DNA from: a virus | Direction: 5' to 3' (one strand) | IMG/VR virus record: IMGVR_UViG_3300046167_000876 | Length of the DNA stretch: 64,000 nucleotides | Shown here: positions 2,679-39,667 of the stretch, piece after piece | Layout: each line of letters starts with the position of its first letter | Position numbering within the stretch: position 1 is the first letter of the stretch | Position numbers and translations under genes: made by a program | The notes under the pieces: model-generated | What the model was told of the DNA's origin: nothing | The model's input: the letters and a program-made list of their open reading frames with translations, nothing else | Database searches by the model: none

Positions 2679-2680
2679 AT

Positions 2681-21259: not shown

Positions 21260-22412
21260 ATGAAACAAACAAAAAAAATTTGGTATGCTCCTTATAAGCA
21301 TGAAGCTTATGGTCAAGAAGAAATTGATGCCGTAGTTGAATCACTAAAATCAGGTTGGTTAGGAGGACAAGGTCCTAAATCAGTTGAATTTGAAGAAAAA
21401 ATTGCTAAAACATTTGGTAAAAAATATGGTGTATTTGTTAACTCGGGTTCATCAGCATGTTTATTAGCTATTGCTGCTTTAGACTTACCTAAAGGAACTA
21501 AAATTATTACACCTGCTTGTACATTTGCTACCACATTAGCTCCTATTATCCAATTAGGATATGTACCTGTATTTGTAGATGTAGATTTAACTACATATTG
21601 TGCAAATATAGATCAAGTTATAGCTAAAGTAACAGATGATACATCAGCAATTATGTTGCCAAATTTAATTGGTAATAAACCAGATTGGCCTAGACTTAAA
21701 AAGGCATTAGTTGATATGGGTAGAGAAGATATTTATTTAATTGAAGATTCAGCTGATACTTTAACTCAAACACCTGAAACAGATGTTGCCACTACTAGTT
21801 TTTACGCTTCACACGTTATTACAGCTGGTGGAGTAGGTGGAATGGTAATGTATAATGATAAAAAACATGTTACTAAATGTTTACAATATAGAGATTGGGG
21901 TAGATTAGGTGATGATTCTGAGATTATGGATGATAGATTTAATCATATAGTAGATGGGATTCCTTATGATCATAAATTTTTATATTCAGTATTAGGTTAT
22001 CATATGAAAGCTAGTGAAATGAATGCCGCATTTGGTATTGTTCAATTAGAAAGATTTGGTGTTAATAGTAAAATTAGAAGAGATAATGTTGAACGTTATT
22101 TAGAAAATTTAAAAGGGGTTGGGGATCTAATTTTACCTGATGATAGTATTAAACCTAATTGGTTAGCAATACCCTTACAAACAGAAAAAAGATTTGAATT
22201 ATTAAACTTTTTAGAGGAATAATAACATCCAAACTAGAGTAACATTTGCCGGTAATGTAACTAGACACCCAGTTTATCGTGAGTATTTAGAAGACTTTGA
22301 AAATTCAGATACTATTATGAAAAATGGATTTTTACTAGGAGCTCATCACGGGATGACTGTTGAAGATGTAGATATTGTATGTGATAAAGTTAAAGAATTT
22401 TTTAATAAATAG
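21260..22412 (+). CDS. DegT/DnrJ-family PLP enzyme, RfbH/ColD-like sugar 3-dehydratase; one extra base near 22219
   Basis: VNSGSSA, IEDSAD, SFYASHVITAG; continues in the +1 frame as NNIQTRVTFAGN...KVKEFFNK* to TAG 22410-22412. Confidence 0.8.
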
Positions 22413-23096
22413 ATGAAAGTAGCTATATTAGGGGATGGATTACTAGGAATAGAATTATCAAAACAAACTAATTGGGATATTATTAGTAGAAATTCTCATG
22501 GTCTTGATTTTAATGATATATCATCTTGGTATCAATATTTAGTTAAATATGATGTAATTATTAATTGTATAGCTAACACTGATTCATACTCCAAAGATAA
22601 AACCCAACATTGGAACATAAATTATAAATCAGTAGTAAGACTATGTAATTGGTGTAATGAATATGATAAAAAATTAGTACATATATCTACTGAATTTGTT
22701 TATGCTAATAATGAAAAACCACCTACAGAAGAAGATATTCCATCCCCTGATAATACTTGGTATGCTTATACTAAATTATTAGCAGATGAATATATTAAAC
22801 TTACTAGTTTTAATTATCTAATTTGTAGAGAATTACATAAACCAAATCCATTCCTATATGATGAGGTTTGGAAAGTCCAAACATCAGGAGATACAGTTGA
22901 TAAAATAGCTAATTTAATAATACAATTAATAAATAAAAATGCTAGTGGAGTTTTTAATGTTGGTACTGGGGATAAATGGTTAAAAGAACTTGCACCTAAA
23001 ACAAGTAAAGTAATACCACCTCCATTTAAAACCCCATTTGATACTAGAATGGACTTAACTAAACTTAATAACTTTTTAAATGAGAATAATATATAG
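22413..23096 (+). CDS. dTDP-4-dehydrorhamnose reductase-like (RmlD)
   Basis: GDGLLG, INCIANT, HISTEFVY, YAYTK. Confidence 0.75.
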   Translation: MKVAILGDGLLGIELSKQTNWDIISRNSHGLDFNDISSWYQYLVKYDVIINCIANTDSYSKDKTQHWNINYKSVVRLCNWCNEYDKKLVHISTEFVYANNEKPPTEEDIPSPDNTWYAYTKLLADEYIKLTSFNYLICRELHKPNPFLYDEVWKVQTSGDTVDKIANLIIQLINKNASGVFNVGTGDKWLKELAPKTSKVIPPPFKTPFDTRMDLTKLNNFLNENNI

Positions 23097-23775
23097 AATA
23101 TCAGATGCTGGTTATAATAAAGTCAAACCAGAATATATTAATAATGAAAATTGTTTAGCTAATGCTACTAAGGTATTTGATAATTCAACCTGGAGTGTTA
23201 TAGCAGATAATGTATCCCCAGATACTAATAATATGATTCAAAAATATGTAACACGTAATTGTATTTTATATGCTGAAAAAGGTAATGGGGCTGCAACATT
23301 TAATTTAGCATTGGATGAAGCCTTAACTTATGATGATGAAGAAATAATATATTTTATAGAGAATGATTATTTGCATAAACCTGAATCTGAAAAAATAATA
23401 GAAGAAGGATTTAAATTAGGAGCATCATTTGTATCATTATATGACCATCCAGATAAATACATTACACCTGAAAATGGTGGTAATCCTTATTGTCAAGGTG
23501 GAGCTGAAGACACAAGAGTATATTTAACTGATTCTTGCCATTGGAAAATAACTAATAGTACTACTATGACTTTTGCTGCTAAAGTAAAAACATTAAAAAA
23601 AGTAGAACCTACACTTAGAGCTTATACTACTGGAACCTACCCTCAGGATTTTAAAATGTTTTTGGATTTAAGAAAACAAGGACATTTGTTAGTAACACCT
23701 TTACCTGGATATTCTACTCATGGAGAAACTGCTTGGTTAACTCCTTTAACTAAATGGGAACAATATATAAAATGA
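23080..23775 (+). CDS. putative glycosyltransferase (GT-A-like)
   Basis: YFIENDYLH, YDHPDKY, STTMTF motifs; cluster context. Confidence 0.6.
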   Translation: MRIIYRISDAGYNKVKPEYINNENCLANATKVFDNSTWSVIADNVSPDTNNMIQKYVTRNCILYAEKGNGAATFNLALDEALTYDDEEIIYFIENDYLHKPESEKIIEEGFKLGASFVSLYDHPDKYITPENGGNPYCQGGAEDTRVYLTDSCHWKITNSTTMTFAAKVKTLKKVEPTLRAYTTGTYPQDFKMFLDLRKQGHLLVTPLPGYSTHGETAWLTPLTKWEQYIK

Positions 23776-24536
23776 TAACAGTAGTAATTACAACATATAA
23801 AGAACCTAAGGCATTAGATATTTGTTTACAATCCGCTATTAAAGGACAAGTCCACGATAATCAGATTATTGTAGTAGTAGATGGTTATTATGACTTAAAT
23901 AAAGAAGTACTAGATAAATATAAGGATAAAATAAATACCCTTAATTTAGAAAATAATTTAGGAATGATTAAGGCCATGAATTTAGGTCATTATAATGCCC
24001 ATCATGATTTGGTATTTCATGTTCAAGATGATAATGTATTTCCAAATAAATGGGATGAAAAATTATTAGAACATTATAAAGAAGGATCAGTTTTAACCCC
24101 AAACCAAATAGAACCTAATCCAAGTATGTTTCCTCAATTTAGTATAAAAGATTTAGGAACGGATTTAAATAACTTTAATTTATCTTCATTTTGGGATTAC
24201 AATGAATTAATATCTAAAAATGAATTTGATGAATGTGGTTCAACTTTCCCTTTCTTAATATCTAAATCTGATTATCTAAAAATAGGTGGATTTGATGAAT
24301 CATACCCAGGACCTTGGGTTGTTGATTGGGAATTTTTTATGAAATGTCAAATGAATGGATTAAAAATGATTAGAACTTATAACTGCCATTTTTACCATTT
24401 TGTATCATTAGGGACAAAATCACAAGAACAATTAGAGGAAGCAAAACAAAAAGAAAATTTATGTCATAAATTTGCCTTATACAAATGGGGTTCGTATATT
24501 AAACATAACCCCCAAAATAATTTAAAATATATTTAA
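23754..24536 (+). CDS. glycosyltransferase family 2
   Basis: VVITTY, VVVDG, QDD, IGGFDE, DWEF; likely start ATG 23772. Confidence 0.85.
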   Translation: MGTIYKMITVVITTYKEPKALDICLQSAIKGQVHDNQIIVVVDGYYDLNKEVLDKYKDKINTLNLENNLGMIKAMNLGHYNAHHDLVFHVQDDNVFPNKWDEKLLEHYKEGSVLTPNQIEPNPSMFPQFSIKDLGTDLNNFNLSSFWDYNELISKNEFDECGSTFPFLISKSDYLKIGGFDESYPGPWVVDWEFFMKCQMNGLKMIRTYNCHFYHFVSLGTKSQEQLEEAKQKENLCHKFALYKWGSYIKHNPQNNLKYI

Positions 24537-24977
24537 ATGAAAAAATATAAATTAGGTTTTACTGCTGGTAATTTTGATTTACTTCATCCCGGTTATATTT
24601 ACACATTTGAAGAGGCAAAACGTCATTGCGAAAAATTTATAGTATTTTTACAAAGAGATCCTTCATTGCATAGAAAATCCAAGTATAAACCTGTAATTCC
24701 ATCTTGGGATAGATATAAAGCATTAATGTCAATTCAACACATTGATGAAGTTTATATGTATCAGACTGAAGATGAATTACTTGATTTAATTAAAATATTT
24801 AAACCTGATCTAAGGATTTTAGGTGAGGATTATTTAGGTAAATCCTTTACAGGAGACGATTTACCTATTAAAATATTGTATACTTCTAGATCACATGGTT
24901 GGTCAACAACTAAATTAAAAGATTTAATTACTAAACAAACCATTAAACAAAACCCAGACATGTTAAATGAAAAATAA
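24537..24977 (+). CDS. cytidylyltransferase (TagD/RfaE-II-like)
   Basis: AGNFDLLHPGY (HxGH variant), LGEDY, RSHGWSTT. Confidence 0.8.
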   Translation: MKKYKLGFTAGNFDLLHPGYIYTFEEAKRHCEKFIVFLQRDPSLHRKSKYKPVIPSWDRYKALMSIQHIDEVYMYQTEDELLDLIKIFKPDLRILGEDYLGKSFTGDDLPIKILYTSRSHGWSTTKLKDLITKQTIKQNPDMLNEK

Positions 24978-25413
24978 TATACCAGTTTTTACTGATGTTA
25001 GAGGTGATTTTATTCCTTATGACTTAAAAGGTTGGGATCAGATGAATATTAGTATCAACGAAGCTAGATATACATTCAGAGGTCTACATTATCAAATTAA
25101 CCCTCGACAAACTAAGTTAGTTAAAGTTATTCAAGGAAAAGTTTTAGATATTATATATGACTTAAATTCTTCTAATATTGAATTTTATAAGTTAGATAAA
25201 AATAATGATTTGTATATAACAGATAATTATGCTCATGGTTTTTTAACATTAGAACCTAATACTATATTTACTTATCTAGTTAAAGGGGAATACAATCCTA
25301 AAGAGGAGTATAGTATTGTTTGGGATAAAATCCCAGAGGTAAAATCCATTATTGAACATTATACCACAGCAGATAGATTAACAATTTCAGAAAAAGATAA
25401 ATTAGGAAAATGA
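24967..25413 (+). CDS. rmlC: dTDP-4-dehydrorhamnose 3,5-epimerase
   Basis: FTDVRG, RGLHYQ, QTKLV, AHGFLTL, ISEKD. Confidence 0.85.
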   Translation: MKNNIPVFTDVRGDFIPYDLKGWDQMNISINEARYTFRGLHYQINPRQTKLVKVIQGKVLDIIYDLNSSNIEFYKLDKNNDLYITDNYAHGFLTLEPNTIFTYLVKGEYNPKEEYSIVWDKIPEVKSIIEHYTTADRLTISEKDKLGK

Positions 25414-26300
25414 GAATAGTAATTACAGGAGCATTTGGATTTATTGGATCACATTTTGCAAAATGGGTATTTAATTTAGATGACGATATTAAAATATTAG
25501 TGGTAGATAATTGTACTTATGCAGCCAATAGAGATAATTTAAAGGGTATTACTTATGAATGGTTAAATAAAGATATTTGTGATGTAACAGCTGAAGATTT
25601 AGGAGAATATGATTATTTAATTAATTTTGCAGCTGAATCCCATGTTGATAATTCAATTAAAGATGGAAGACCATTTGTTAGAACAAATGTAGAAGGTACA
25701 TTCAATTTATTAGAAGTAGCAAGACAAAACCCAGATTTAAAGAAATTTATCCAAATATCAACAGATGAAGTTTATGGGGATATGGATGATTATGGTCCTG
25801 GTGTTTTAGCTGATGAAAAATTTAGTTTAATTGGGTCATCATATTATTCATCAACTAAGGCGTCTGCCGATTTATTAGTTCAAGCAGCAGGTAGAACGTA
25901 TAAGTTACCATATTTAATAACACGTACGTGTAATAATTATGGTAAAAACCAACATCAAGAAAAATTATTGCCTACAATAATAAATTGTGTTAAAAATAAT
26001 CTTAAAATTCCTATCTATGGAGATGGTCAAAATATAAGAGAATGGATACATGCTGATGATAATTCAATGATAATATTCAATTTATTAAATTCAGATAAAA
26101 CAGGAGTACATAACATAGGTTCAGGTGAAAGATATACTAATTTACAAATAATTGAAACTATAGAAAAAATATTAGGTTATCAATTAGATTTAAAGTTTGT
26201 AGAAGATAGAAAAGGCCATGATAGAGCTTATGGTTTATTAACTAATTATACACCTGTATTACAAAATAACTTGACAAAATATTTAACAGAACAATTATGA
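25410..26300 (+). CDS. rmlB: dTDP-glucose 4,6-dehydratase
   Basis: GFIGS, FAAESHVDNSI, ISTDEVYG, YSSTKA, NNYG, REWIH, DRKGHDRAY. Confidence 0.92.
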   Translation: MRIVITGAFGFIGSHFAKWVFNLDDDIKILVVDNCTYAANRDNLKGITYEWLNKDICDVTAEDLGEYDYLINFAAESHVDNSIKDGRPFVRTNVEGTFNLLEVARQNPDLKKFIQISTDEVYGDMDDYGPGVLADEKFSLIGSSYYSSTKASADLLVQAAGRTYKLPYLITRTCNNYGKNQHQEKLLPTIINCVKNNLKIPIYGDGQNIREWIHADDNSMIIFNLLNSDKTGVHNIGSGERYTNLQIIETIEKILGYQLDLKFVEDRKGHDRAYGLLTNYTPVLQNNLTKYLTEQL

Positions 26301-27127
26301 AAATAGGAATTATAGGACAAGGATTTGTAGGTAATGCTATATACCAAAAGTTTAAAAATTATTATAATGTAATAACTTATGATTTAAAACCAAATTTATG
26401 TAATTCTACATTTGAAGAAGTAGCTAAACAATTAGTTATATTTGTTTGTCTTCCTACTCCAATGAATATGGATGGAAGTTGTAATATTGATTTAATTGAA
26501 AAAACTCTTTTAAAAATATCTCAATCTCCATCTCCAAATTTATTTAGAACAATAGTAATTAAATCAACAATCCCCCCAGGTACAACTGATAAATTAAATG
26601 CTAAATATGATAATCTTCATATTATGTTTAATCCTGAATTTTTAACTGAAGCTAATGCTATAGAAGACTTTAATAATCAAAATAGAATAATTTTAGGAGG
26701 TCATAAAGATGTTACATCCTACCTTAAAACTATATACATTAAAGTATTTCCACAAGCACGTATAATTAAAACTGATTCAACTCATGCAGAAATGGTAAAG
26801 TATCTAATAAATACATTTCTTTCAACCAAAGTATCTTTTGCAAATGAGATGTACGAAATAAGTAAATCATTAGGTATTGATTATGATAAGGTTATTGAGT
26901 ATGCAACATTAGATGATAGATTAGGAAAATCACATTGGAATGTACCAGGACCAGATGGGGATTTTGGATTTGGTGGACATTGTTTTCCAAAAGACCTCCA
27001 GGCATTGATATCATTAGCACACGATTTAAATGTATCCCCAAGAATATTAACAGCAGTTGATTGTAAAAACAATGATGTTAGAAAAAACAAAGATTGGAAA
27101 CAAATGAGAGGGAGAGCTGTAATATAG
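26297..27127 (+). CDS. UDP-glucose/GDP-mannose dehydrogenase family (short form lacking the C-terminal domain)
   Basis: GQGFVG, CLPTP, KSTIPPGTT, NPEFL, AEMVKY, GFGGHCFPKD. Confidence 0.88.
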   Translation: MKIGIIGQGFVGNAIYQKFKNYYNVITYDLKPNLCNSTFEEVAKQLVIFVCLPTPMNMDGSCNIDLIEKTLLKISQSPSPNLFRTIVIKSTIPPGTTDKLNAKYDNLHIMFNPEFLTEANAIEDFNNQNRIILGGHKDVTSYLKTIYIKVFPQARIIKTDSTHAEMVKYLINTFLSTKVSFANEMYEISKSLGIDYDKVIEYATLDDRLGKSHWNVPGPDGDFGFGGHCFPKDLQALISLAHDLNVSPRILTAVDCKNNDVRKNKDWKQMRGRAVI

Positions 27128-27158
27128 TTGTTTACCTAATCTCTTTTTCATATATTTA
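27127..27158 (+). promoter_or_regulatory. -33/-7 promoter
   Basis: GTTG-N20-TATATTTA. Confidence 0.5.
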
Positions 27159-27189
27159 TATATTGCAATTTAAATTTAAATAATAGTTA

Positions 27190-27336
27190 ATGACAACAAC
27201 TCAACAATCAAACAATGGGCAAACTCAAGTCAATAGTACTAGAGAAACGTTCAATGCAAAGGTATCCCGATTAAGTATGTTAGGGAGATCTAAAAAAGTT
27301 GCCTGGGACAATGTAAGAAGAAACAGGTCAATTTAA
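27190..27336 (+). CDS. small hypothetical protein (48 aa), not in ORF track
   Basis: MTTTQQSNNGQ...RRNRSI* downstream of a promoter motif. Confidence 0.55.
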   Translation: MTTTQQSNNGQTQVNSTRETFNAKVSRLSMLGRSKKVAWDNVRRNRSI

Positions 27337-27356
27337 CACTTAAAAAGTAATAAAAA

Positions 27357-27608
27357 ATGAAAATGATTCCTTGTATTAAATGTAAGGCAGATATGCCTGA
27401 ATTAAGGTTAACTCAATATGGTTATAAAGTATGTGTTAATTGTTCTAGTGTAAGCACTAAACGTGGCATCCCAGTAACAAGGGGTTCAGGTGATCATACT
27501 TGGACTGAAACCGTAATAATGGAAGAAGATCAATATCAGTCTTTTGTAAACTCAACTTCTAAAGAAAGAGGTAGCAGTGGTGATACAGTAACCTTTAAAT
27601 TAAATTAA
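27357..27608 (+). CDS. DksA/TraR-type C4 zinc finger protein
   Basis: CIKC..MPELRL......CVNC. Confidence 0.6.
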   Translation: MKMIPCIKCKADMPELRLTQYGYKVCVNCSSVSTKRGIPVTRGSGDHTWTETVIMEEDQYQSFVNSTSKERGSSGDTVTFKLN

Positions 27609-28225
27609 TGCCTAAGGCAAAACCTTTATCTAAAGAACAAATAGTAGCGGCTCAAGCGAAAACAAAATCTAATATGGCTGCTGCTCGTTATCTTCATGTG
27701 TCATATCAACACTATAAGAAGTGGGCTAAGTTATATAAATTATTTGATGGACATAAAAATCAAAGTGGTAAAGGTATACCTAAGTTTTTAAAGGGGCCTA
27801 AAAAAATGCCTCATATGTTAGAAATAATTGAGGGTAGGATAGCTGCATCTTCATTTGATCCAAATAAACTTAAATATGCTCTAATAGAACAGGGATATTT
27901 ATCAGAGGAATGTTCTATATGTTCATTTAAAGAAAGAAGGGTATTAGATTACAAGATTCCTTTATTACTTCATTTCAAAGATAATAATAGTAATAATTAT
28001 AGTTTAGATAATGTACAGTTATTATGTTATAATCATTATTTTCTAACTGTAGGAGATGTTTTTAATGCTAAAGATGTAAAACAAATTGAATCAAAACAAG
28101 AACATTTTGGTACAAGTGAAAAAGTAGAATGGGAAGTTGATGATTATCATTTACAACGTTTAAAAGAATTAGGATTAGGAGATGATGATGAAGATGATAT
28201 TAATCAATATATTTCAAGAATATGA
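27608..28225 (+). CDS. HTH plus HNH-like domain protein
   Basis: SNMAAARYLHVSYQHYKKW (HTH); CSIC...LHFKDNNSNNYSLDNVQLLCYNH (HNH-like). Confidence 0.7.
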   Translation: MPKAKPLSKEQIVAAQAKTKSNMAAARYLHVSYQHYKKWAKLYKLFDGHKNQSGKGIPKFLKGPKKMPHMLEIIEGRIAASSFDPNKLKYALIEQGYLSEECSICSFKERRVLDYKIPLLLHFKDNNSNNYSLDNVQLLCYNHYFLTVGDVFNAKDVKQIESKQEHFGTSEKVEWEVDDYHLQRLKELGLGDDDEDDINQYISRI

Positions 28226-28401
28226 AAAAATCTAGACGAGCTAAATCATTAGAAAAAAAACATCATAAAATTACTAAGGATTACGATAAACAAAAAGAAC
28301 GTCATTTAGAAAAACTTGCATCAAAAACTTTGGCTAATGACGAAAAGTTTCGTAAATTACATGATAAGAAAATCAAGGGTGATTTCTTAAAAAATTTTTA
28401 A
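28222..28401 (+). CDS. small basic hypothetical protein (59 aa), not in ORF track
   Basis: MKKSRRAKSL...DFLKNF*; ATGA overlap. Confidence 0.6.
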   Translation: MKKSRRAKSLEKKHHKITKDYDKQKERHLEKLASKTLANDEKFRKLHDKKIKGDFLKNF

Positions 28402-28403
28402 TT

Positions 28404-28709
28404 ATGGAATTTGCACACAAATGGGAATTTGATAGTGAAGATGAATTAAATAATATCTTTACTGACGGTAAAAAAGAATTAAATGATCTAATTGTAGATA
28501 TAGCATTAGATAATTTGCATACTAAAATTAATGATATACCTGTACTATCAATCTATACTAAAGATACAGATATGTTTTATGATATTATGATTGAACGTCC
28601 TGATATGGTAGAAACATTAGAACAAAATCTTACAGCAATGGAGGAATATGAGGATTATGAACGTTGTTCTAAGATTATTAAAGCAATAGATTATCTTAAA
28701 AATCAATAA
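28404..28709 (+). CDS. hypothetical protein with C-terminal E[D/E]YE.C..I (UVR-like) motif
   Basis: EEYEDYERCSKI; same motif in 45245..45679. Confidence 0.65.
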   Translation: MEFAHKWEFDSEDELNNIFTDGKKELNDLIVDIALDNLHTKINDIPVLSIYTKDTDMFYDIMIERPDMVETLEQNLTAMEEYEDYERCSKIIKAIDYLKNQ

Positions 28710-28710
28710 T

Positions 28711-29298
28711 ATGAAAACTACGTTAAAAATTGGAATTATAGGAATATCAATTTTTTTACTAGCATTTAAAGATTATAGAGAAAAACTACTCCCAGTTACT
28801 CCAGTATTAGATTTACCCGTTAAAGGTATAAATAATATTGAAGTTACACCATTAACGGTACCTCATATTGAATTAAAATCAAATTCCCATGAAGAATTTT
28901 TAAAAGCTATTGGATTTAAAGAATCAGGTAATAGATATGATGTTGTAAATCGTTTTGGTTATATGGGTAAATATCAATTTGGAAAACGAACACTCAGAGG
29001 TTTAGGATTTAAAGTAAGTAAAGAAGAATTTTTAAATTCCCCTGAAATTCAAGAAGCTGCTATGAGAAAATTACTCCAAACTAATAAAAAATATTTACAA
29101 AAATATATAGATGAGTTTGAGGGAAAAGTAGTAAATGATATTCTAGTAACAGAATCAGGATTATTAGCTGCTGCACATTTAGGAGGTGCTGGGAGTGTTA
29201 AAAAATGGTTCCGTACTGGTAAAGTTAAAAAAGATGGTAATGGAGTTAAAATAACTACATATATGGAGCGTTTTTCTGGATATGATTTATATTTATAA
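28711..29298 (+). CDS. lysozyme-like/lytic transglycosylase with N-terminal signal anchor (candidate endolysin)
   Basis: Hydrophobic N-terminus; FKESG catalytic Glu, GKYQF, LAAAHLGG. Confidence 0.7.
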   Translation: MKTTLKIGIIGISIFLLAFKDYREKLLPVTPVLDLPVKGINNIEVTPLTVPHIELKSNSHEEFLKAIGFKESGNRYDVVNRFGYMGKYQFGKRTLRGLGFKVSKEEFLNSPEIQEAAMRKLLQTNKKYLQKYIDEFEGKVVNDILVTESGLLAAAHLGGAGSVKKWFRTGKVKKDGNGVKITTYMERFSGYDLYL

Positions 29299-29311
29299 GC
29301 AAAAATAGATT

Positions 29312-29446
29312 ATGGCAAGGATAGTTGTAAATAATTACACCCCAAATAGTAGAAAAAAACGCCCTGGGGTACATGCTAAAAGCAAAACTAGTAAATTAAA
29401 AAAAAGTAAAAATTATGTCAAAGCGTATCGTGGTCAAGGGAGATAG
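29312..29446 (+). CDS. small basic protein ending YRGQGR (44 aa), not in ORF track
   Basis: MARIVVNNY...KKRPGVHAKSK...KAYRGQGR*; preceded by ATATTTATAA. Confidence 0.7.
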   Translation: MARIVVNNYTPNSRKKRPGVHAKSKTSKLKKSKNYVKAYRGQGR

Positions 29447-29447
29447 T

Positions 29448-29609
29448 ATGGATTTAAGTACTATATCTTTATTTAACCATATGACAGATGATGATTTTCT
29501 AGCTGTACATAATGCTGGACAATTAAAAAACTTATGTACGGCTTTATCATTAGATTTACAATCAATTAAAGATGAAAAAATTAAAACAAATAACACTTAC
29601 ACAGCATGA
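29448..29609 (+). CDS. hypothetical protein
   Basis: ATG 29448 follows the previous stop directly; preferred over 29415. Confidence 0.6.
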   Translation: MDLSTISLFNHMTDDDFLAVHNAGQLKNLCTALSLDLQSIKDEKIKTNNTYTA

Positions 29610-29730
29610 ATGGATTGATGCTATGAAACTTCCTACACCTCATAGGAATAAAAAGAAATACTATAGAAAAGAAAAACACAGAGCTGCTTGGAAAAGCGGC
29701 TCTTCTTCATTATATTTACATAGTAAATAA
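29572..29730 (+). CDS. ArfA/BrfA-like alternative ribosome rescue factor candidate (52 aa), not in ORF track
   Basis: HRNKKKYYRKEKH matches the ArfA NKK...YxRKxKH pattern; terminator hairpin inside the CDS. Confidence 0.55.
   Translation: MKKLKQITLTQHEWIDAMKLPTPHRNKKKYYRKEKHRAAWKSGSSSLYLHSK
29680..29717 (+). terminator. intrinsic terminator-like hairpin inside the ArfA-like CDS
   Basis: AGAGCTGCTT-GGAA-AAGCGGCTCT (10 bp, GNRA loop) followed by TCTTCATTATATTT. Confidence 0.6.
29687..29718 (+). promoter_or_regulatory. -33/-7 promoter overlapping that hairpin
   Basis: CTTG-N20-TATATTTA. Confidence 0.55.
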
Positions 29731-29735
29731 AGGTT

Positions 29736-30176
29736 ATGTTATACGAATTTAAAAATTATAATAAACACGGTAATGTAAGGACAAGGATAGTACCTGGTCC
29801 CAAGGGTAAAGCATTTAGTGTTAATCCAAAAGGTTTAGGTAATTATATTGGTGTTAGAGTATTCAAATATGAATATAAACATGAACTATTACCTCCAAGT
29901 TTATTAAGTATAGGTGGTAAAAGATATATTGTTCCTACTTGGCAAGAAGTACTACCAGAAACTGAATTGAGTGATATAAAATGGATCAAACCAAAACCAA
30001 AGGTTAAACAAGAACCAATTATTGAGACCCATATTAGCAGTAGCAACGCAAATAAAACGTATAAAACAATATACTACCCAGAATCAGGTAAATTCCATTG
30101 CGATTGTCCAGGTAGATGGAGAGCGTTTGATAACCGTTGTAAACACATAAAATCATTAGAAAAAAAAGTAAAGTAA
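29736..30176 (+). CDS. SWIM zinc finger protein
   Basis: C-terminal CDC...CKH. Confidence 0.7.
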   Translation: MLYEFKNYNKHGNVRTRIVPGPKGKAFSVNPKGLGNYIGVRVFKYEYKHELLPPSLLSIGGKRYIVPTWQEVLPETELSDIKWIKPKPKVKQEPIIETHISSSNANKTYKTIYYPESGKFHCDCPGRWRAFDNRCKHIKSLEKKVK

Positions 30177-30263
30177 TGCGCGGGAAATTTTGATACCCGG
30201 GCTAGGGTTCGTATATTTACCACGTTGATGCAGTTAAGCATCACGTTAAAACCAATAAGAGTT
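30169..30263 (+). promoter_or_regulatory. repeated promoter/5'-hairpin cassette, copy 1
   Basis: AAAGTAATGCGCGGG, TTTG-N19-TATATTTA, hairpin TGATGC-AGTTAA-GCATCA, then GAGTT-ATG. Confidence 0.8.
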
Positions 30264-30482
30264 ATGTATATTCAAGTCAAAAACACAACAAAGAAAAGAA
30301 ACAACCAATTTAGAGTTCAAACAATGTCTGCTGGATTAAAAGAAATTAAATCTAGAGGATGGATTGTTAATGACTGTAAATTTGAGCAATTAAGAGATGA
30401 ATTAGTTACTAATAAGTACAAAGAATTAGATGGTAGAATGAATACCAGAGGTAAACAATTTGCACAAAGAGCTGGATTATAA
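30264..30482 (+). CDS. hypothetical protein
   Basis: ATG 30264 after the cassette; the listed upstream start lies inside the leader hairpin. Confidence 0.7.
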   Translation: MYIQVKNTTKKRNNQFRVQTMSAGLKEIKSRGWIVNDCKFEQLRDELVTNKYKELDGRMNTRGKQFAQRAGL

Positions 30483-30500
30483 ATTTAAAATAAATAGGTT

Positions 30501-30995
30501 ATGAAATTATCACCAACAAGAGAAATGCTTAGACCATATTCAGATTTGATTTTGGCATCATTAGATGTAAATCAAGTAGCAACTAGAGTAGGTGCTGTGG
30601 CTGAATTTATTTTAATGAACCATTATGGTTGGTTAAAAAATGGAGATATAGGTAACGAAAAAGGATATGATGCTACTGACAAAGATGGCAATAAACATGA
30701 AATAAAAGGTATGTCATATGAAACTAAAACACACTATGTTGCTTATAAACATGCTGTAAAAGGGGATAGATATGATTATTTAAGCATTCTTCATTTTAAT
30801 GAAAAAAGGGTAGCACATATTCCTAGAGAAGAAATAAATAAATTTATTGAAGAAAATACATTACCAGGTAGAAAAACTAAATCATTACGTTTATGTTTTA
30901 GTGATCCTATTTTAACTAAACTTGGGAAACCAAGAAAAAAGTCATTATTTTTAGCATTATTTTTAAAATACGAAGATAAACAATTTACATTTTAA
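30501..30995 (+). CDS. PD-(D/E)XK restriction-endonuclease-like protein
   Basis: GAVAE...KGYDATDKDGNKHEIK. Confidence 0.6.
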   Translation: MKLSPTREMLRPYSDLILASLDVNQVATRVGAVAEFILMNHYGWLKNGDIGNEKGYDATDKDGNKHEIKGMSYETKTHYVAYKHAVKGDRYDYLSILHFNEKRVAHIPREEINKFIEENTLPGRKTKSLRLCFSDPILTKLGKPRKKSLFLALFLKYEDKQFTF

Positions 30996-30996
30996 T

Positions 30997-31389
30997 ATGA
31001 GTAGAGGTAGACCAAGTGAACAAGTAGAAAGATTAGATAAATGGACTATAGACAGTACTGATTATGATGGATCTAGATCAATTATTAAATTTGATAGATC
31101 CAAATCAGCAAATGGTCCTTATTCATGGGAAAATATCCCACCTAAAGGGTTTAGACAACCTAAACCAAAAATTGATCAACGAATGTATGGTAACAATCCT
31201 GTAGTTGTAGTATTTAAAACATCAAATCGTTCTAATGCCAAAACTAAAATGAAAGTAATTAACAAAAATATTGATTATGTCCTATCAGCTAAAAAAATAC
31301 CAGGAATACCTGCTATTGCTGAATGGCTTGATGTTGGTGTTGGTAAATCATTTGTAAATAAATATAAACAAAAATATAATTTAGCTTAG
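30997..31389 (+). CDS. hypothetical protein
   Basis: Coupled ORF with N-terminal RGRP. Confidence 0.7.
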   Translation: MSRGRPSEQVERLDKWTIDSTDYDGSRSIIKFDRSKSANGPYSWENIPPKGFRQPKPKIDQRMYGNNPVVVVFKTSNRSNAKTKMKVINKNIDYVLSAKKIPGIPAIAEWLDVGVGKSFVNKYKQKYNLA

Positions 31390-31431
31390 TCTTTATATAT
31401 TTATAACAAAATATTAATTAATAAATTTATT

Positions 31432-31734
31432 ATGTTAAAAATTATAGGTCTTATAGTAGTAATTTTAGTAATCGGAGCAGCTGTTTACTATTTTGGTTTT
31501 TATAGAAAAGGTAAAATCAACGATAGAGATGGAGATTATATTCCTGATGAAATCGAAGATGCAGTTGAAGATGTTAAAGAAGTAGTTAAAGAAACTAAAC
31601 GCAGAGCTAAAGCAGTAAAAAAAGAACTTAAGGATGTTGCTGATGCAGCAAAAGAAGTTGTTAATCAAGCTGGTGATGTAGCCGCGGCTGCAAAAGGAAA
31701 ACCAAGAAGAGGAAGAAAACCAAAGAAAAAATAA
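31432..31734 (+). CDS. membrane-anchored protein with coiled-coil and basic tail
   Basis: N-terminal TM helix, DRDGDYIPD, C-terminal KGKPRRGRKPKKK; ATATTTATAA upstream. Confidence 0.7.
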   Translation: MLKIIGLIVVILVIGAAVYYFGFYRKGKINDRDGDYIPDEIEDAVEDVKEVVKETKRRAKAVKKELKDVADAAKEVVNQAGDVAAAAKGKPRRGRKPKKK

Positions 31735-31738
31735 AAAT

Positions 31739-32743
31739 ATGAGCAAATATAATTTAATAGATATTTACGAGCAATATCAAATTGGTTCAGGTTGGACTAG
31801 AGACTTTGATTATGATGGAATGTTAAAAGCCGGACTTAAAACAGGAGTTGATACTGATATTGAGCTTTTAAAGAAAATGGCTGAAGATTATACTGATGTT
31901 AATTATCACAGAGAAGCATCTCATTTATATAACGCTATTGAAGCATTAGAAGAGAATGCTATTAAAGAAGCAAGTATGTTCTTTGGAGATTTTCATGCTG
32001 AAATTGAAGAAACTATGAAAAGCCAAGGTATGGATATTGAACCAACATTAGGTAAATTTATGGCTTCTAAAATGGAAGAAGATAAAGATAAAGAACCTAA
32101 AGATAAAGAACCTAGAGATGGAGTTAAAAGTGCTGCATCTAAACTAGGAATAAAACCAAAGCACGTAAAAGAAGTATCTTTACGTGAAGGATATAGTATT
32201 GAAGGTTTACTTAGTATTCCTTTAAAAGCTAAATTCTTAGAAGCATTTCAAGATTTATATTTTGATTTAGTTGAAGAAGATCCATTTATGGCTGAGGATG
32301 TAGTTGATCATTTAAGTGTTGAAATGTTAAAACATTTAGATGCTATTCAAGCTCAAGGTGATAAATTAGCTGGTATAGAACAAGAAGAATTTATAGCTAT
32401 TGATGAATTAGATAATACTTTAAACATTGATAAAGTAGCATCTCCAGATGCTAAAGCACATGATTATGGGGATGAAATTAAAGGTATATCTGATGAAGAT
32501 GATACTGAAGAAAAATATGCTCATGGAATGGTATTGCCTCTAGAAGAAATGTTTGGTCCTGTTAAGTTCCTTAAGTCTAAAGGTATCGATGATGATATAA
32601 TTGCAGATTTTATGAAAACCCACGCCGAAGATATTGTAGGTGCTAGTGAAGATGAAATCATGGATGAATTTGAAAACTTTAGATCAGTAAACTATGATTA
32701 TATAGATGAAGATTTAAGGACACATTTTAAAAGGTTTATATAA
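31739..32743 (+). CDS. acidic hypothetical protein (possible virion internal protein)
   Basis: 334 aa, E/D-rich, short KDKEP duplication. Confidence 0.65.
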   Translation: MSKYNLIDIYEQYQIGSGWTRDFDYDGMLKAGLKTGVDTDIELLKKMAEDYTDVNYHREASHLYNAIEALEENAIKEASMFFGDFHAEIEETMKSQGMDIEPTLGKFMASKMEEDKDKEPKDKEPRDGVKSAASKLGIKPKHVKEVSLREGYSIEGLLSIPLKAKFLEAFQDLYFDLVEEDPFMAEDVVDHLSVEMLKHLDAIQAQGDKLAGIEQEEFIAIDELDNTLNIDKVASPDAKAHDYGDEIKGISDEDDTEEKYAHGMVLPLEEMFGPVKFLKSKGIDDDIIADFMKTHAEDIVGASEDEIMDEFENFRSVNYDYIDEDLRTHFKRFI

Positions 32744-32753
32744 ACGCTTTCCC

Positions 32754-32852
32754 GGGAGGGCATGGCTGGGGTATTGGAGAGGAAATCCCGTCTCTTGGCA
32801 TTAATTTGGCAACGCGGTGGCATTCTTACGCCCTTTCGTTTGACGCCCTCCC
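32754..32852 (+). ncRNA. candidate structured non-coding RNA, family unknown
   Basis: GC-rich island closed by GGGAGGGC/GCCCTCCC, internal hairpin, followed by an intrinsic terminator. Confidence 0.55.
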
Positions 32853-32860
32853 TCATATAC

Positions 32861-32898
32861 AGAAAAAGGAGCTATCTAGCTCCTTCTTTTGTCTTTTT
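32861..32898 (+). terminator. intrinsic terminator
   Basis: AAGGAGCT-ATCT-AGCTCCTT followed by CTTTTGTCTTTTT. Confidence 0.75.
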
Positions 32899-32909
32899 AT
32901 ATGTAAAAA

Positions 32910-32984
32910 TTTGGTTACCTGGGATATCTTTCGTATATTTACCCTGTTGATAATTAAGTCAACGCATTAAATAGAGGTTATATT
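32910..32984 (+). promoter_or_regulatory. repeated promoter/5'-hairpin cassette, copy 2
   Basis: TTTG-N20-TATATTTA, hairpin GTTGAT-AATTAA-GTCAAC. Confidence 0.8.
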
Positions 32985-33272
32985 ATGAAAACATTTGACG
33001 ATTTAGAATTTACAAAACATAGTGTTACTAAAAAAGCTATTATGGCATCACTTGAACTTAAACCTAATGTGTTTATATCAGTAGTTGCAGGTGAAGGAAT
33101 GTACAGTACATCTAGAAAAGGTGTTAAAGCCGAATGTACTAAAGTTGAAGATGCTTCTTCATTTGAAGTTGCCATTATAGATGAAAATTTACCTGATGAC
33201 CAACAACAATGGGATGTTAATGGTTGGCAGACAAGAGAAGATATTAATAAATTAATAATTGAGAACTCATGA
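32985..33272 (+). CDS. hypothetical protein (MKTFDDLEF...DVNGWQTREDI type)
   Basis: First gene after the cassette. Confidence 0.75.
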   Translation: MKTFDDLEFTKHSVTKKAIMASLELKPNVFISVVAGEGMYSTSRKGVKAECTKVEDASSFEVAIIDENLPDDQQQWDVNGWQTREDINKLIIENS

Positions 33273-33505
33273 GTAAAGAAAAAAGATATGTAGTGACAAT
33301 GGATATGTACGTTTATGCTGATAACGATTATATGGCTAAAAAACGAGCTAATGATTTAAGATTATCAATAGAAAATAGACGACATTCAGGTGATGTTAAA
33401 ATAACTGAAATTGGTGAACAACCATTTGCTAGTTTTAATTATCGTAAATTAGATGATCCAACATTCACACCTAAAGATTTGTCTAACGAACCGTTACCAT
33501 TTTAA
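33269..33505 (+). CDS. hypothetical protein
   Basis: ATGA overlap; C-terminal PLPF. Confidence 0.7.
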   Translation: MSKEKRYVVTMDMYVYADNDYMAKKRANDLRLSIENRRHSGDVKITEIGEQPFASFNYRKLDDPTFTPKDLSNEPLPF

Positions 33506-33506
33506 T

Positions 33507-33644
33507 ATGAAAAAAGGAGATTGGATATTATATAATAATAAACGCAAAAAGTGCTTTGGTATACACCATAATGGTAATATTCTAATTAAGATGAATGGTA
33601 CTATAGTTCAAGTACATAAAGAAAAAATAAGAACTCCCGCGTAA
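33507..33644 (+). CDS. hypothetical protein (45 aa)
   Basis: MKKGDWILY... start chosen directly after the previous stop. Confidence 0.55.
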   Translation: MKKGDWILYNNKRKKCFGIHHNGNILIKMNGTIVQVHKEKIRTPA

Positions 33645-33647
33645 AAA

Positions 33648-33722
33648 TTTGGTTACCCGGGCTAGAGTTCGTATATTTACCACGTTGATGCAGTTAAGCA
33701 CAACATTAAATTAATTAAGGTT
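33648..33722 (+). promoter_or_regulatory. repeated promoter/5'-hairpin cassette, copy 3
   Basis: TTTG-N20-TATATTTA; 33654-33700 matches 30194-30240 at 46 of 47 bases; hairpin GTTG(A)TGC-AGTTAA-GCACAAC. Confidence 0.85.
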
Positions 33723-34469
33723 ATGACAAATACAGAAACAATGCAATTAGATTTATTTCATGGAGTAGTATTAACTACTGAACAACAAAAAGAAGTTAAT
33801 ACATTTATTAAAAGACAAGCTGAAAGAGCAGTTGATAGTCAAAATGATGTTAATAGAAAAATGTTATTATTGGATGAAGCAGGTTTTGTTCAAGGAGTTG
33901 ATTATGATAGTAATTTTGAAGTTTACGAGGTTACTAAAGAAGCATCATTTGGTTATTCATATAATAATACAAATTATGAGCATGAAGTTACTTACATGAA
34001 TGCTGTAGGTGGTGTTTATCTTAAAGTTAATACCATTAAAGAGGGTAAAATAAAAGAATATAAAGCTTCAGTTGATAGAGAAGGTGGTAAATTAATGTGT
34101 ACTAATATTACTCAACAATATAGATATTATAAGCCAAGTTCATTGCTTACTAAATTTAATGAGCATAATGAGCGTAAAATAAATGAGCTTGAACATAATA
34201 ATAAGCAAAAAATTGCTTTAGATATTATAGTTGCTAAGTACCAGAAATTATATCCTAAAGCTGAGGTTAAAATTAGTTCTGATTATTATAGAAGATCTTA
34301 TCATAGTTTTCCAACTGTTAAAGTTAAATTTGAATCAGGTAGTTCAGTTGAATTTACTTTAGGTTATGGTGATGAAATGGAAAAAGAAAGATTTCATAAA
34401 AAATATGATGCTCAACATGAAACAACAAAAGATTTATTAGATAGATTTAATAATCAAAAAGCTAAGTAA
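33723..34469 (+). CDS. hypothetical protein
   Basis: 248 aa ORF directly after the cassette. Confidence 0.75.
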   Translation: MTNTETMQLDLFHGVVLTTEQQKEVNTFIKRQAERAVDSQNDVNRKMLLLDEAGFVQGVDYDSNFEVYEVTKEASFGYSYNNTNYEHEVTYMNAVGGVYLKVNTIKEGKIKEYKASVDREGGKLMCTNITQQYRYYKPSSLLTKFNEHNERKINELEHNNKQKIALDIIVAKYQKLYPKAEVKISSDYYRRSYHSFPTVKVKFESGSSVEFTLGYGDEMEKERFHKKYDAQHETTKDLLDRFNNQKAK

Positions 34470-34470
34470 T

Positions 34471-34611
34471 ATGAAAAATGAAAATTGGGATCCAGAAAAA
34501 TTTCAGGGTAAATCTAAAAAACAAGTAGAGTCTTCCACAATAGGATGTTTTATAGGAAGTATAGGTATATTTTTAGTTTTATTATGGTTATTAATGTTAA
34601 AAAATTTATAA
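34471..34611 (+). CDS. small membrane protein (46 aa), not in ORF track
   Basis: MKNENWDPEKFQG... with a C-terminal TM helix; fills the gap exactly. Confidence 0.6.
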   Translation: MKNENWDPEKFQGKSKKQVESSTIGCFIGSIGIFLVLLWLLMLKNL

Positions 34612-34612
34612 T

Positions 34613-34921
34613 ATGGTAAGGTATAGAAATAGATACGGTGATGAATACACATTTACTAAACAAAAAGATGGTAATGTATTATGGGAAGGTGATTTTGAAT
34701 ACATAAGAGCTGGGGATGACTTTATAGATCCATCAGGTGGACCATTTATTAGAGTAGGTCAAATGTTATCTCATATTATACATGGGGATGAAATGAATGT
34801 AATAGTAGAAGGTTTTACTAATACAGAAAAAGGTATATTAATTAATACAAAACCTCATGATTATGATCCTAAAGACTTTAGTCATTTAGAAGATAGGGGT
34901 ATAATTGGAGGTATAATTTAA
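34613..34921 (+). CDS. hypothetical protein (NRYGD...DPSGGPFI motif)
   Basis: Coupled ORF. Confidence 0.7.
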   Translation: MVRYRNRYGDEYTFTKQKDGNVLWEGDFEYIRAGDDFIDPSGGPFIRVGQMLSHIIHGDEMNVIVEGFTNTEKGILINTKPHDYDPKDFSHLEDRGIIGGII

Positions 34922-34930
34922 ATTAAATAT

Positions 34931-35158
34931 ATGAAAGTAGAAAGACAAGTTTTACATAATTGCTTGGATAAGGCAAAAAGTTTTTATAAATTAGGGGAAC
35001 GAGATAAGGCAAGAGACTATTGTGATATGGGAATTGGTTATGTTGCTGCTAAAAAAGAAGATGGTGCTGATGGGGAAGACTTAATTGAAGGAGTTAGAAT
35101 CAATTTATGGTTAGAACGTTTTTGGATGTTTTTAGAAAATAAAAATTTAATGTTATAA
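34931..35158 (+). CDS. hypothetical protein
   Basis: Coupled ORF. Confidence 0.65.
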   Translation: MKVERQVLHNCLDKAKSFYKLGERDKARDYCDMGIGYVAAKKEDGADGEDLIEGVRINLWLERFWMFLENKNLML

Positions 35159-35159
35159 T

Positions 35160-35348
35160 ATGGAAAACGAAGCAAATAAATGGTGGGAAATTTCAGTAGC
35201 ATGGAAATGGCCACATGAAGGATTTACAGTTGGTTATGATTTAATTGAACCAATAGAAGAAGATGAAGCTAAATATTTTAGTTTTAATTTATATTTAGGA
35301 TTATTATCTGTACTTATTAATTGGGGAAAACATAGTTGGAATGAGTAG
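35160..35348 (+). CDS. hypothetical protein
   Basis: Coupled ORF. Confidence 0.6.
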   Translation: MENEANKWWEISVAWKWPHEGFTVGYDLIEPIEEDEAKYFSFNLYLGLLSVLINWGKHSWNE

Positions 35349-35493
35349 AATAGAAGAATTAGTATATAGTGCTCATGAATATGGTAAACGAGCTCAATTG
35401 TTTGATGAGGTTTCTAAGATAAAATTAGAATCTCCAACAATGCAATTAGAAGAAGTTTATGATAAAGCATATCAAAATGTAATGAATACTTAA
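35341..35493 (+). CDS. hypothetical protein (50 aa), not in ORF track
   Basis: MSRIEELVYSAHEYGKR...; fills the gap before fabH. Confidence 0.6.
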   Translation: MSRIEELVYSAHEYGKRAQLFDEVSKIKLESPTMQLEEVYDKAYQNVMNT

Positions 35494-35495
35494 AT

Positions 35496-36515
35496 ATGAG
35501 TAATTCTAAAATTATAGGATTAGGACATTATGTCCCAAATAATATTATTACTAACAACGATTTATCTGAAATGTTAAATACATCAGATAAATGGATTCAA
35601 AGTCGTACTGGAATTAAAGAACGTAGATGGGTTACTAAAGAAAGTGGTGATACAGCTGCTACAATGGGAACTAAAGCAGCAAAAATAGCTATTGAAAATG
35701 CTGGTCTAAAAAAAGATGATATTGATTTCATTATATTTGCTACTATGACACCTGATTATTACTTTCCTGGTTGTGGTGTTCAAGTCCAGAATGAATTAGG
35801 TATTAAAAATATAGGTGCTTTAGATGTTAGAAACCAATGTTCAGGTTTTATTTATGCCTTATCTGTTGCTGATAAGTTTATTAAAACAGATACTTATAAA
35901 AATATATTAGTAATAGGAGCAGAATTACATTCAGGTGGATTAGATAAAACACCAAGAGGTAGAGATGTAAGTGTAATATTTGGAGATGGAGCGGGTGCTT
36001 TAGTATTATCTAGAACAGACAAAAACAAAGGTATATTATCTACTCATTTACACTCAGATGGAAAATACGCTGAAGAATTAGCTGTAGTAGGACCTTCACC
36101 TAGACATGGTGTTGGAAAAGATAATCATTGGATCAAAAGTGTTCAAGATAAACCTGAGGAAACATTTTATTTTCCTTATATGAATGGGAAATCAGTATTT
36201 AAACATGCCGTTTTTAGATTTAGTGATGTAATTACTGAAGGATTATCTGTAAATCAATTAAACCCATCTAATGTTGATCTATTTATTCCACATCAGGCAA
36301 ACTTAAGAATATCTGAATTTGTGCAAAAGCAATTTGACTTCAGAGATGACCAAGTATTTAACAACATACAAAAATATGGTAATACAACTGCAGCATCAAT
36401 TCCTATAGCATTAAGTGAAGCATTTAAACAGGGTAAAATTAAAGATAATAATATAATAGTATTAGCTTCATTTGGTAGTGGTTACACTTGGGGTAGTATA
36501 ATAATAAAGTGGTAA
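35496..36515 (+). CDS. fabH: beta-ketoacyl-ACP synthase III
   Basis: WIQSRTGIKERR, NQCSGF (catalytic Cys), FGDGAGA, MNG, PHQAN, YGNTTAASIP, FGSGYTWG. Confidence 0.93.
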   Translation: MSNSKIIGLGHYVPNNIITNNDLSEMLNTSDKWIQSRTGIKERRWVTKESGDTAATMGTKAAKIAIENAGLKKDDIDFIIFATMTPDYYFPGCGVQVQNELGIKNIGALDVRNQCSGFIYALSVADKFIKTDTYKNILVIGAELHSGGLDKTPRGRDVSVIFGDGAGALVLSRTDKNKGILSTHLHSDGKYAEELAVVGPSPRHGVGKDNHWIKSVQDKPEETFYFPYMNGKSVFKHAVFRFSDVITEGLSVNQLNPSNVDLFIPHQANLRISEFVQKQFDFRDDQVFNNIQKYGNTTAASIPIALSEAFKQGKIKDNNIIVLASFGSGYTWGSIIIKW

Positions 36516-36868
36516 TGAATATAGAAAAATTATTAATAGGTATATTTTGGTTTATTTTGGGTCATGTAGCAGTGTTTTTTCAATTAAACGGTCAATTTAA
36601 ATGGGAATGGTTTAAAAAAAATGAATTCATATTAGCATTAGCTGGTCTTATAATATCATATTTTTATATATGGGGTACAAAACATACCGTAGAAGGGTTT
36701 AATGGTTTATTATGGCCTGCTAGATTTATAGGATTTAGTATAGGAATATCCGTTTATGCTTTGGGTGTTGGATATTTCTTTAAAGAGGGTATTACAAATA
36801 AAACATTTGTAAGTTTACTATTATGTGTTATATTAGTAGCAATTCAAGTATTATGGAAAACTAAATAA
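36509..36868 (+). CDS. multi-pass membrane protein (SMR/DMT-like topology)
   Basis: Four hydrophobic helices. Confidence 0.65.
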   Translation: MVMNIEKLLIGIFWFILGHVAVFFQLNGQFKWEWFKKNEFILALAGLIISYFYIWGTKHTVEGFNGLLWPARFIGFSIGISVYALGVGYFFKEGITNKTFVSLLLCVILVAIQVLWKTK

Positions 36869-36869
36869 A

Positions 36870-37142
36870 ATGGCAGCAAGAAAAAAAATTACATTTAAAC
36901 GATGGCTACTCAGAAGATTAGTATATGTAAATAAACTCACCCCATATCAGAAATTTGCTTCACGAGTAGGTTATATGGGTAGTGGGTTTTTAATAGCAGC
37001 ACAATGGACAATTGAACCATATTTATACGTGATAGGGTTTTGTTTTGTTATAGTACAAACATCATCAAGAAAACAATGGAACTTAGTTGCATTAAATATA
37101 AATGGATTAATAGCTTGGATTACACACCTCTTAAATACATAA
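36870..37142 (+). CDS. small membrane protein
   Basis: Basic N-terminus, 2-3 TM helices, KQWNLVALN. Confidence 0.65.
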   Translation: MAARKKITFKRWLLRRLVYVNKLTPYQKFASRVGYMGSGFLIAAQWTIEPYLYVIGFCFVIVQTSSRKQWNLVALNINGLIAWITHLLNT

Positions 37143-37144
37143 AA

Positions 37145-37282
37145 ATGGACCTACAAGAAAGAACAAACAAAATTAAAGAATTAAGTAGCATGATAGTGGA
37201 TCTAAAAAAGAATAGAACAGTAGATTCTAAAAAAACCATTCAAAAACTACAACAAGAAATAGATAAGCTAATATATGATTAA
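37145..37282 (+). CDS. small coiled-coil protein
   Basis: MDLQERTNKIKELS...; start chosen after the previous stop. Confidence 0.55.
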   Translation: MDLQERTNKIKELSSMIVDLKKNRTVDSKKTIQKLQQEIDKLIYD

Positions 37283-37484
37283 TAGAGAATTAATAACTAA
37301 GGATAATAAAATGTATGAAGTAGTATCATCTGTTTCTTCACATATGTTTCTTAATAAAGATAAATCTCTAAACCAACAAGTATTAGGATTGTATGTTAAT
37401 GAATATAAAGGAGATAGAGTGTTACAACGTGAAGATAAATTCTTAATATGTAAGCAAATAGAAGAAGCACAAATAATAGAATAA
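37275..37484 (+). CDS. hypothetical protein
   Basis: Coupled ORF. Confidence 0.65.
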   Translation: MINRELITKDNKMYEVVSSVSSHMFLNKDKSLNQQVLGLYVNEYKGDRVLQREDKFLICKQIEEAQIIE

Positions 37485-38109
37485 CAATTTGGATAAGTAA
37501 AAAAATAATTGTATATTATGATTAATATAGGTAAAGAATGGCGTTGGATGGATGATGAGTTGTTAGAACAAGGTGTAGATGATTTTATATCATATTCAAC
37601 AGGTAGTGGAGCAGTAGAAGATTAGTTATGAGAAAAAAAAGAGAATATAGAGGTTGTGAATGGGAAAGTCCAATATTTAGAGAAATAATGAGAGAAAAAT
37701 GGGCTAAAGAAGGTAAAACGAAAATAAACGAATATAAAACAAAAAGAGGCAAACGAAGCTCTTTATAACACCACACAATAACCTAATACGTATATACAAA
37801 CATGAGTAAATCTATAAATAACTTAATAAAGATATTAGAACAAGATATCAAATTAAATGATGATCAACCACTTACTACTAAAAAATTAAAACGTATATTG
37901 GAGGTAGCAGTAGAAAATAAATCAGAATAATATGTTGGTAGGAGTAGGTATAGCAATATTTATTGTAGTTTGGATTTGGATAATTTGGGAACTTTATACT
38001 GCTCCACTTATTGATGATGTTGGAAATATTGATGTTACAGATGTTGACATTGAAGATGACTTGTGGGATAAGAACCACATTGAAGATATGGATTAAAAAA
38101 TAAATTAAA

Positions 38110-39594: not shown

Positions 39595-39667
39595 TTTGGA
39601 TACACGGGATAGAGTTCGTATATTTACCATGTTGAGCAATTAAGCATCAGCAATAAATAAAGGTTAT
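39595..39667 (+). promoter_or_regulatory. repeated promoter/5'-hairpin cassette, copy 4
   Basis: TTTG-N20-TATATTTA, hairpin GTTGAGC-AATTAA-GC(A)TCAGC. Confidence 0.8.

Follow-up and report, generated by a model that had tools for sequence, protein, structure and literature searches.

A micro-gene conserved in marine viruses encodes a short peptide whose basic tail resembles that of ArfA

A conserved micro-gene and its carriers

The window, which is the whole 64,000-nucleotide stretch of viral DNA that was analyzed, contains a small gene between a 64-aa ORF and a 146-aa gene. The features of this region, by position in the window, are as follows.

29415-29609, plus strand: upstream 64-aa ORF, which overlaps the start of the micro-gene by 38 nt
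29572-29730, plus strand: full micro-gene ORF, 52 codons; codons 38-52 are without conservation at the protein level
29572-29682, plus strand: conserved micro-protein core M1-R37, with an amphipathic N-terminal part, two invariant prolines and a basic tail ending in K-x-K-H
29680-29703, plus strand: terminator-like 10-bp hairpin with a GGAA loop; the loop and the 5' arm hold a -33-like CTTGG
29687-29719, plus strand: promoter-like element (CTTG, 20 nt, TATATTTAC), putative promoter for the next gene
29704-29711, plus strand: T-rich stretch TCTTCATT after the stem, a moderate terminator tail
29736-30176, plus strand: downstream 146-aa gene served by the promoter, with 47 related loci

An unannotated gene of 52 codons had originally been predicted at 29572-29730, with a translation identical to that obtained here, and it proved to be real. 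A tblastn search of IMG/VR with six peptide seeds yielded 420 relatives, and 71 clusters at E ≤ 1e-3, each of 32-111 residues, emerged when 1.8 billion representative proteins were searched with a profile. Hundreds of marine viral contigs carry the micro-protein in strongly conserved form, and nucleotide diversity in the clade of the window was.17,.08 and.42 at codon positions 1, 2 and 3, respectively. Given the dominance of third-position variation and the hundreds of relatives, 29572-29730 is a real phage gene. Its start at 29572 matches the start of the family despite the overlap with the upstream ORF. The K35-H36 codons occupy 29674-29679, and the stop codon TAA (29728-29730) lies 25 nt past the stem of the hairpin.

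The conserved part of the protein comprises about 34-37 residues, with the consensus MKKIxLTxxEWxEAMKLPTPHRNKKKYYRKxKHK; 12 columns were invariant in alignment A1, which holds 45 distinct sequences. The functional part is the first ~36 residues, in which a short amphipathic helix is followed, after a turn at P-x-P, by an extended basic tail that closes with K-x-K-H. When AF2 was run on A2, the broader family alignment of 55 sequences, it placed a helix at residues 11-18 and left the remainder extended (pLDDT 80), a model consistent with folding of the peptide upon contact with its target.

Curated resources were silent on this family. Comparison of the window protein with Pfam, NCBIfam and PHROGs gave nothing useful, and NCBIfam did not match its relatives either, for which the databases offered nothing more specific than "hypothetical protein" or a precomputed Pfam domain. 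A tblastn search of 50,697 phage records matched neither the window protein nor a short form, for which the low-complexity filter may be responsible. The cultured relatives Flavobacterium phage elemoA and Maribacter phage Panino are without the micro-gene, and no cultured phage carrying it was found in these two genomes or in the search of phage records.

We also detected 31 distinct loci in which a micro-gene of 36-44 codons lies wholly inside an ORF of 410-440 codons, between portal-like and capsid-like genes. Two examples from this podophage-like clade are the following.

L080, 2995-3117: embedded micro-gene, inside 2685-3926
L120, 3004-3123: embedded micro-gene, inside 2607-3926

In these loci, diversity at the three codon positions of the small frame was.17/.11/.40, and amino-acid diversity was.18 in the small frame versus.49 in the long one, a pattern which implies that the small gene is the more constrained of the two overlapping frames. 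Immediately before the embedded micro-gene, and in the alternative frame that it uses, we observed a second small ORF, which starts with M-P-F-K/Q and has no Pfam match (L080:2842-2982; L120:2839-2967). In addition, in two representative proteins (P0215 and P0237), the C-terminal half of the micro-protein is fused in frame behind an acidic N-terminus that resembles the one encoded by the long portal-capsid gene. This fusion could stem from a change of frame or from a programmed shift, or it could be an artifact of gene calling.

A Bacteroidota host had been suggested for the phage, and such a host is plausible from the likeness of neighboring genes to known phages and from MAG bins. The SLT-like neighbor in the window resembles Tenacibaculum phages, the capsid region of the embedded clade resembles Flavobacterium, Cellulophaga and Maribacter phages, and the MAG bins with relatives belong mostly to Flavobacteriales, Crocinitomicaceae and Sphingobacteriales. 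The promoter boxes of the window fit the Bacteroidota type as well. Elsewhere, the window carries nucleotide-sugar epimerase-like and UDP-glucose dehydrogenase-like genes (25410-27127) and an ORF of 2445 codons (56108-63445).

Hairpin and promoter behind the conserved core

The hairpin predicted directly after the K-H codons is present at 29680-29703, with a GGAA loop and 10 pairs, one of which is G-U. The 71-nt stretch that contains it has a folding energy of -18.5 kcal/mol (z = -4.7), and none of 200 shuffled sequences was equally stable. It was also the top-ranked terminator-like site across positions 22000-38000. The stem is strong and the T tail, with five T in eight positions, is moderate to weak; a run of seven T follows the hairpin of the L059 type, and a strong T run follows that of some control loci. 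Hairpins found at this position in relatives differ in sequence and show compensatory changes. An Rfam scan of 28500-30500 gave no match, and a scan of the window for tRNA and tmRNA genes found none.

The same DNA carries a promoter-like element. As originally described, CTTG (29687-29690) is followed after 20 nt by TATATTTA (29711-29718). When the element at 29687-29719 is lined up with the control loci and with six further promoter modules found in the window, all fall into the same register, with TTGG and TATATT.A invariant throughout. The Bacteroidota promoter consensus consists of TTTG at -33 and TAnnTTTG at -7. Two boxes with a spacing of about 20 nt, repeated before genes of the same phage, are what a Bacteroidota-type promoter should show, and the sequence shows them.

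In the clade of the window, the ORF continues for 16-31 codons beyond K-H. Stop codons of the window-type tails lie 48-93 nt after K-H, and the -7 box motif is read in different frames by different relatives. Because both the frames and the tail lengths differ, the conserved object past K-H is DNA, namely the hairpin, the T-rich spacer, the -7 box and the leader of the next gene, AAAGGTTATG. What the last 15 codons of the micro-gene translate is the terminator-like hairpin together with the predicted -33/-7 promoter of the downstream gene; this block is read through because no stop codon occurs within the 0-7 nt that separate it from the core.

Loci that contain the downstream gene served as controls. 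In 33 of the 47, no micro-ORF was present within 700 nt upstream, and in the micro-gene-less loci inspected the promoter block also preceded the downstream gene, in some cases with a strong hairpin and a T run. The stop codon of the upstream gene in control loci lay 30-50 nt ahead of the hairpin. Since the block is present without the micro-gene, it is part of the downstream gene's promoter and of the region where the upstream transcription unit ends. A caveat attached to the original prediction, that the hairpin may just separate transcription units, was borne out by these phages. In addition, homologs of the upstream 64-aa ORF end directly before the promoter where the micro-gene is absent (L004, L005, L011, L012 and L036), and by this comparison of loci the micro-gene and its hairpin look like an insertion between the 64-aa ORF and the promoter.

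Several other elements were noticed around these promoters. A 75-nt repeat with 64-87% identity (family D2) occurs at 30185-30259, 33645-33719 and 39592-39666; it covers a promoter module and a conserved transcribed leader that holds an inverted repeat. A very basic 44-aa ORF with the end Y-R-G-Q-G-R is located at 29312-29446, for which the only PHROG match had an E-value of 0.06, and an ORF with a similar end precedes the promoter in L029.

Proposed function and competing explanations

The product of the micro-gene had been described as ArfA/BrfA-like. The first half of this description stands at the level of profiles, where the basic tail resembles the mRNA-tunnel segment of ArfA; membership in the Pfam ArfA family did not hold, and the likeness to BrfA was not supported. 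The window protein was not matched by Pfam ArfA (PF03889, cut-off 25.5 bits) even at E ≤ 10, and the same model, run on five viral records carrying the micro-gene, gave one unrelated hit and no match on the gene. A BrfA chain was absent from both profile searches of PDB chains (E ≤ 10). The E. coli ArfA motif quoted with the original prediction is correct (residues 32-45).

Comparison of A2 with an ArfA alignment by hhalign gave a P-value of 5.4e-5 and a score of 24.3, compared with a mean of 8.2 and a maximum of 14.8 for 120 column shuffles; family residues 21-37 were paired with ArfA residues 27-47, with the G-K-G of ArfA deleted. When PDB chains were searched with the broader alignment, four of the seven matches at E ≤ 10 were ArfA chains (residues 26-49). 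Their E-values are about 5 each, and the result is informative only as a pre-specified test; no other natural small-protein family was recovered. The narrow alignment A1 yielded no match in this search. The ordered motif N-K-K-K-Y-x-R-K-x-K-H outscored all composition-matched shuffles, and the N-terminal halves of the family and of ArfA gave no significant alignment.

A protein of Pseudoalteromonas phage J2-1 (51 aa) was also similar to the family. It scored 41.3 bits against Pfam ArfA, above the 25.5-bit cut-off, and 28.6 bits against DUF7230. The family HMM gave it 18 bits, compared with at most 10.6 for 200 shuffles, and BLASTP between the two single proteins, one from each side, gave an E-value of 0.002. 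By hhalign with A2, the probability was 90% (E 1.5e-6) over 24 columns, an alignment that extends into the D-L-F-R strand and places D-A-M-K opposite D-L-F-R.

In ArfA, the part located in the vacant mRNA tunnel comprises residues 31-48, and the protein is no longer functional when truncated after M40 (PMC5378476). From the motif, we conclude that the tail of the micro-protein is probably an ArfA-type tunnel-binding module, which is attached here to a different N-terminal half. Both homology and convergence are possible; the latter is so because the similarity spans only about 18-24 lysine-rich columns. The tail would represent a shortened counterpart to the segment with which ArfA occupies the vacant 30S mRNA tunnel, and this likeness makes binding to ribosomes with an empty tunnel the most likely action of the peptide. 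Such binding would lead to rescue of ribosomes stalled on broken mRNAs in the infected Bacteroidota host. We estimate a probability of roughly 0.5 that the micro-protein is a distantly ArfA-like peptide with which Bacteroidota phages bind or rescue ribosomes.

One alternative, which we consider rather unlikely, is a basic nucleic-acid-binding micro-protein that serves, for instance, as a regulator, as a virion-associated peptide or as a chaperone for DNA or RNA, and whose likeness to the ArfA tail would be convergent. The limitation of the similarity to a lysine-rich stretch, the absence of any curated-family match and the position of the gene in the podophage-like clade, where it sits inside a portal-capsid gene among late structural genes, all agree with such a function. 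However, composition does not account for the order of residues in the tail motif, which scored above every shuffle, and the one natural small-protein family recovered from PDB was ArfA. Near-invariance of the peptide in very different phages also favors a universal host target.

Expression of the micro-protein is a separate question, to which the original prediction offered an answer: the hairpin ends or cleaves the transcript within the ORF, and the resulting non-stop product is tagged by tmRNA and degraded, so that it accumulates only when trans-translation is saturated. Transcripts ending at the hairpin would have no stop codon, and read-through transcripts would encode the 52-residue form; with efficient termination at the hairpin, the mRNA would necessarily be non-stop. 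For six types of hairpin, the distance from the core is 0-7 nt, and this gap contains no stop codon. Two of them belong to lineages that are 41-47% identical in protein to that of the window, in which the hairpin is separate from the promoter. Where the hairpin is absent, a stop codon occurs 4-8 codons after K-H, and the 30-50 nt between the upstream stop codon and the same block in control loci likewise set the micro-gene apart. In addition, the core is under purifying selection in the clade of the window, which implies that the product is made despite the hairpin.

Several observations weaken this model. The 11 distinct hairpins were stop-free in 100%, 91% and 82% of cases in the individual frames, so read-through is the default. 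Since these G+C-rich hairpins are stop-free in nearly every frame, only the missing stop codon in the short gap is informative, and for the same reason we dropped the openness of the ORF through the hairpin as evidence of selection. The lineages are related, and the hairpin types thus represent few independent events; moreover, the T tail in the window is weak. By the terms of the original prediction, homologs that stop right after K-H or lack the internal hairpin would count against it, and this is partly the case: more than half of the homologs stop 3-8 residues after K-H, many are without a hairpin, and with 87 of 158 family proteins (~55%) ending within 8 residues of K-H, non-stop expression is not a trait of the family. 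We therefore regard the complete model as doubtful, and tmRNA-gated expression may apply, tentatively, to the clade of the window only.

An improbable explanation is that the peptide inhibits translation by filling the mRNA channel of free host ribosomes, which would reshape translation during takeover. The hhalign similarity of the tail in a protein lacking a recognizable RF2-contacting N-terminus might be read in this way, but phage mRNAs would be blocked too, some phage proteins do score above the Pfam ArfA cut-off, and we know of no precedent for a tunnel-occupying inhibitor peptide. Finally, a chance open frame between two real genes, to which the shortness of the ORF, the 29% G+C content of the window and the silence of curated families might point, is refuted by hundreds of conserved relatives and by a third-position pattern seen even in ORFs embedded within another gene.

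If the rescue function is correct, ArfA-type rescue would reach Bacteroidota, for which no ArfA is known to us, through phages. Only ArfB homologs have been reported in this phylum, in about half of the genomes (PMC4235212). A rescue function would also define a minimal tunnel-sensing module of about 13 residues and provide a natural 36-residue peptide for structural work on empty-tunnel recognition. The family is abundant in marine viromes and unannotated, and naming it would give a label to hundreds of viral ORFs; its embedded copies clearly illustrate overprinting, with stronger selection on the embedded gene than on the host frame. The broadest interpretation, which we offer only speculatively, is a new class of rescue peptides invisible to Pfam and brought by Bacteroidota phages, which would combine an ArfA-type tail with a different N-terminal half and would be wired to tmRNA by a pre-stop terminator in one clade and overprinted between portal and capsid in another.

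Comparison with known rescue factors and small basic families

ArfA (YhdL), the RF2-dependent factor of beta- and gamma-proteobacteria, is of the same size class as the micro-protein and likewise has a hydrophobic N-terminal half and an extended basic tail. Its tunnel-binding part, residues 27-47, pairs with the ordered motif N-K-K..Y-x-R-K-x-K-H in the tail of the micro-protein, and arfA has a hairpin inside the ORF, as does the window gene. However, the micro-protein is 9-10 residues shorter up to K-H and is without G-K-G, and neither the RF2-binding strand (F25) nor the A18 region is recognizably kept. Ordinary stop codons in most relatives and Bacteroidota as the likely host phylum are further differences.

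ArfT of Francisella tularensis (40 aa) acts with RF1 or RF2 and has no equivalent of F25; its proposed tunnel-binding part is a basic stretch at the C-terminus (PMC6299226). Compared by description only, it shares the very short size of the micro-protein, whereas its motif K-K-G-G-S-T-N-K-K is different.

DUF7230 (PF23876) comprises uncharacterized small basic proteins. Distant members of our family scored 18-25 bits over profile positions 13-38, and no family member reached the 27-bit cut-off; viral records scored 11-15 bits and the window protein had no hit. In a true DUF7230 member (L151:1471-1620, minus strand), the N-terminal half differs from that of the micro-protein. We considered DUF7230 as a chromosomal host factor and rejected it, as 151 Bacteroidota genomes contained one match, in a phage-like contig. 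The J2-1 protein (L129:283-435) passes both the ArfA and the DUF7230 cut-offs and E. coli ArfA matches DUF7230 weakly; the two Pfam families may be related.

Phage ArfA genes have already been annotated, and an ArfA domain was reported for gp30 of pelagiphage HTVC027P (PMC12753301). Together with the proteins of J2-1 (ATN93434), Brevundimonas phage Bambus and Citromicrobium phage RXM, gp30 resembles the micro-protein in being phage-borne, short (39-60 aa) and ended by an ordinary stop codon. In contrast to the family of the window, the J2-1, Bambus and RXM proteins pass the Pfam ArfA cut-off, and all four phages infect Proteobacteria, unlike the likely hosts of the window family. The tail of the J2-1 protein, K-T-K-Y-R-R-K-K-K-H-K, is likewise without G-K-G, which makes this protein the best bridge between ArfA and the micro-protein family.
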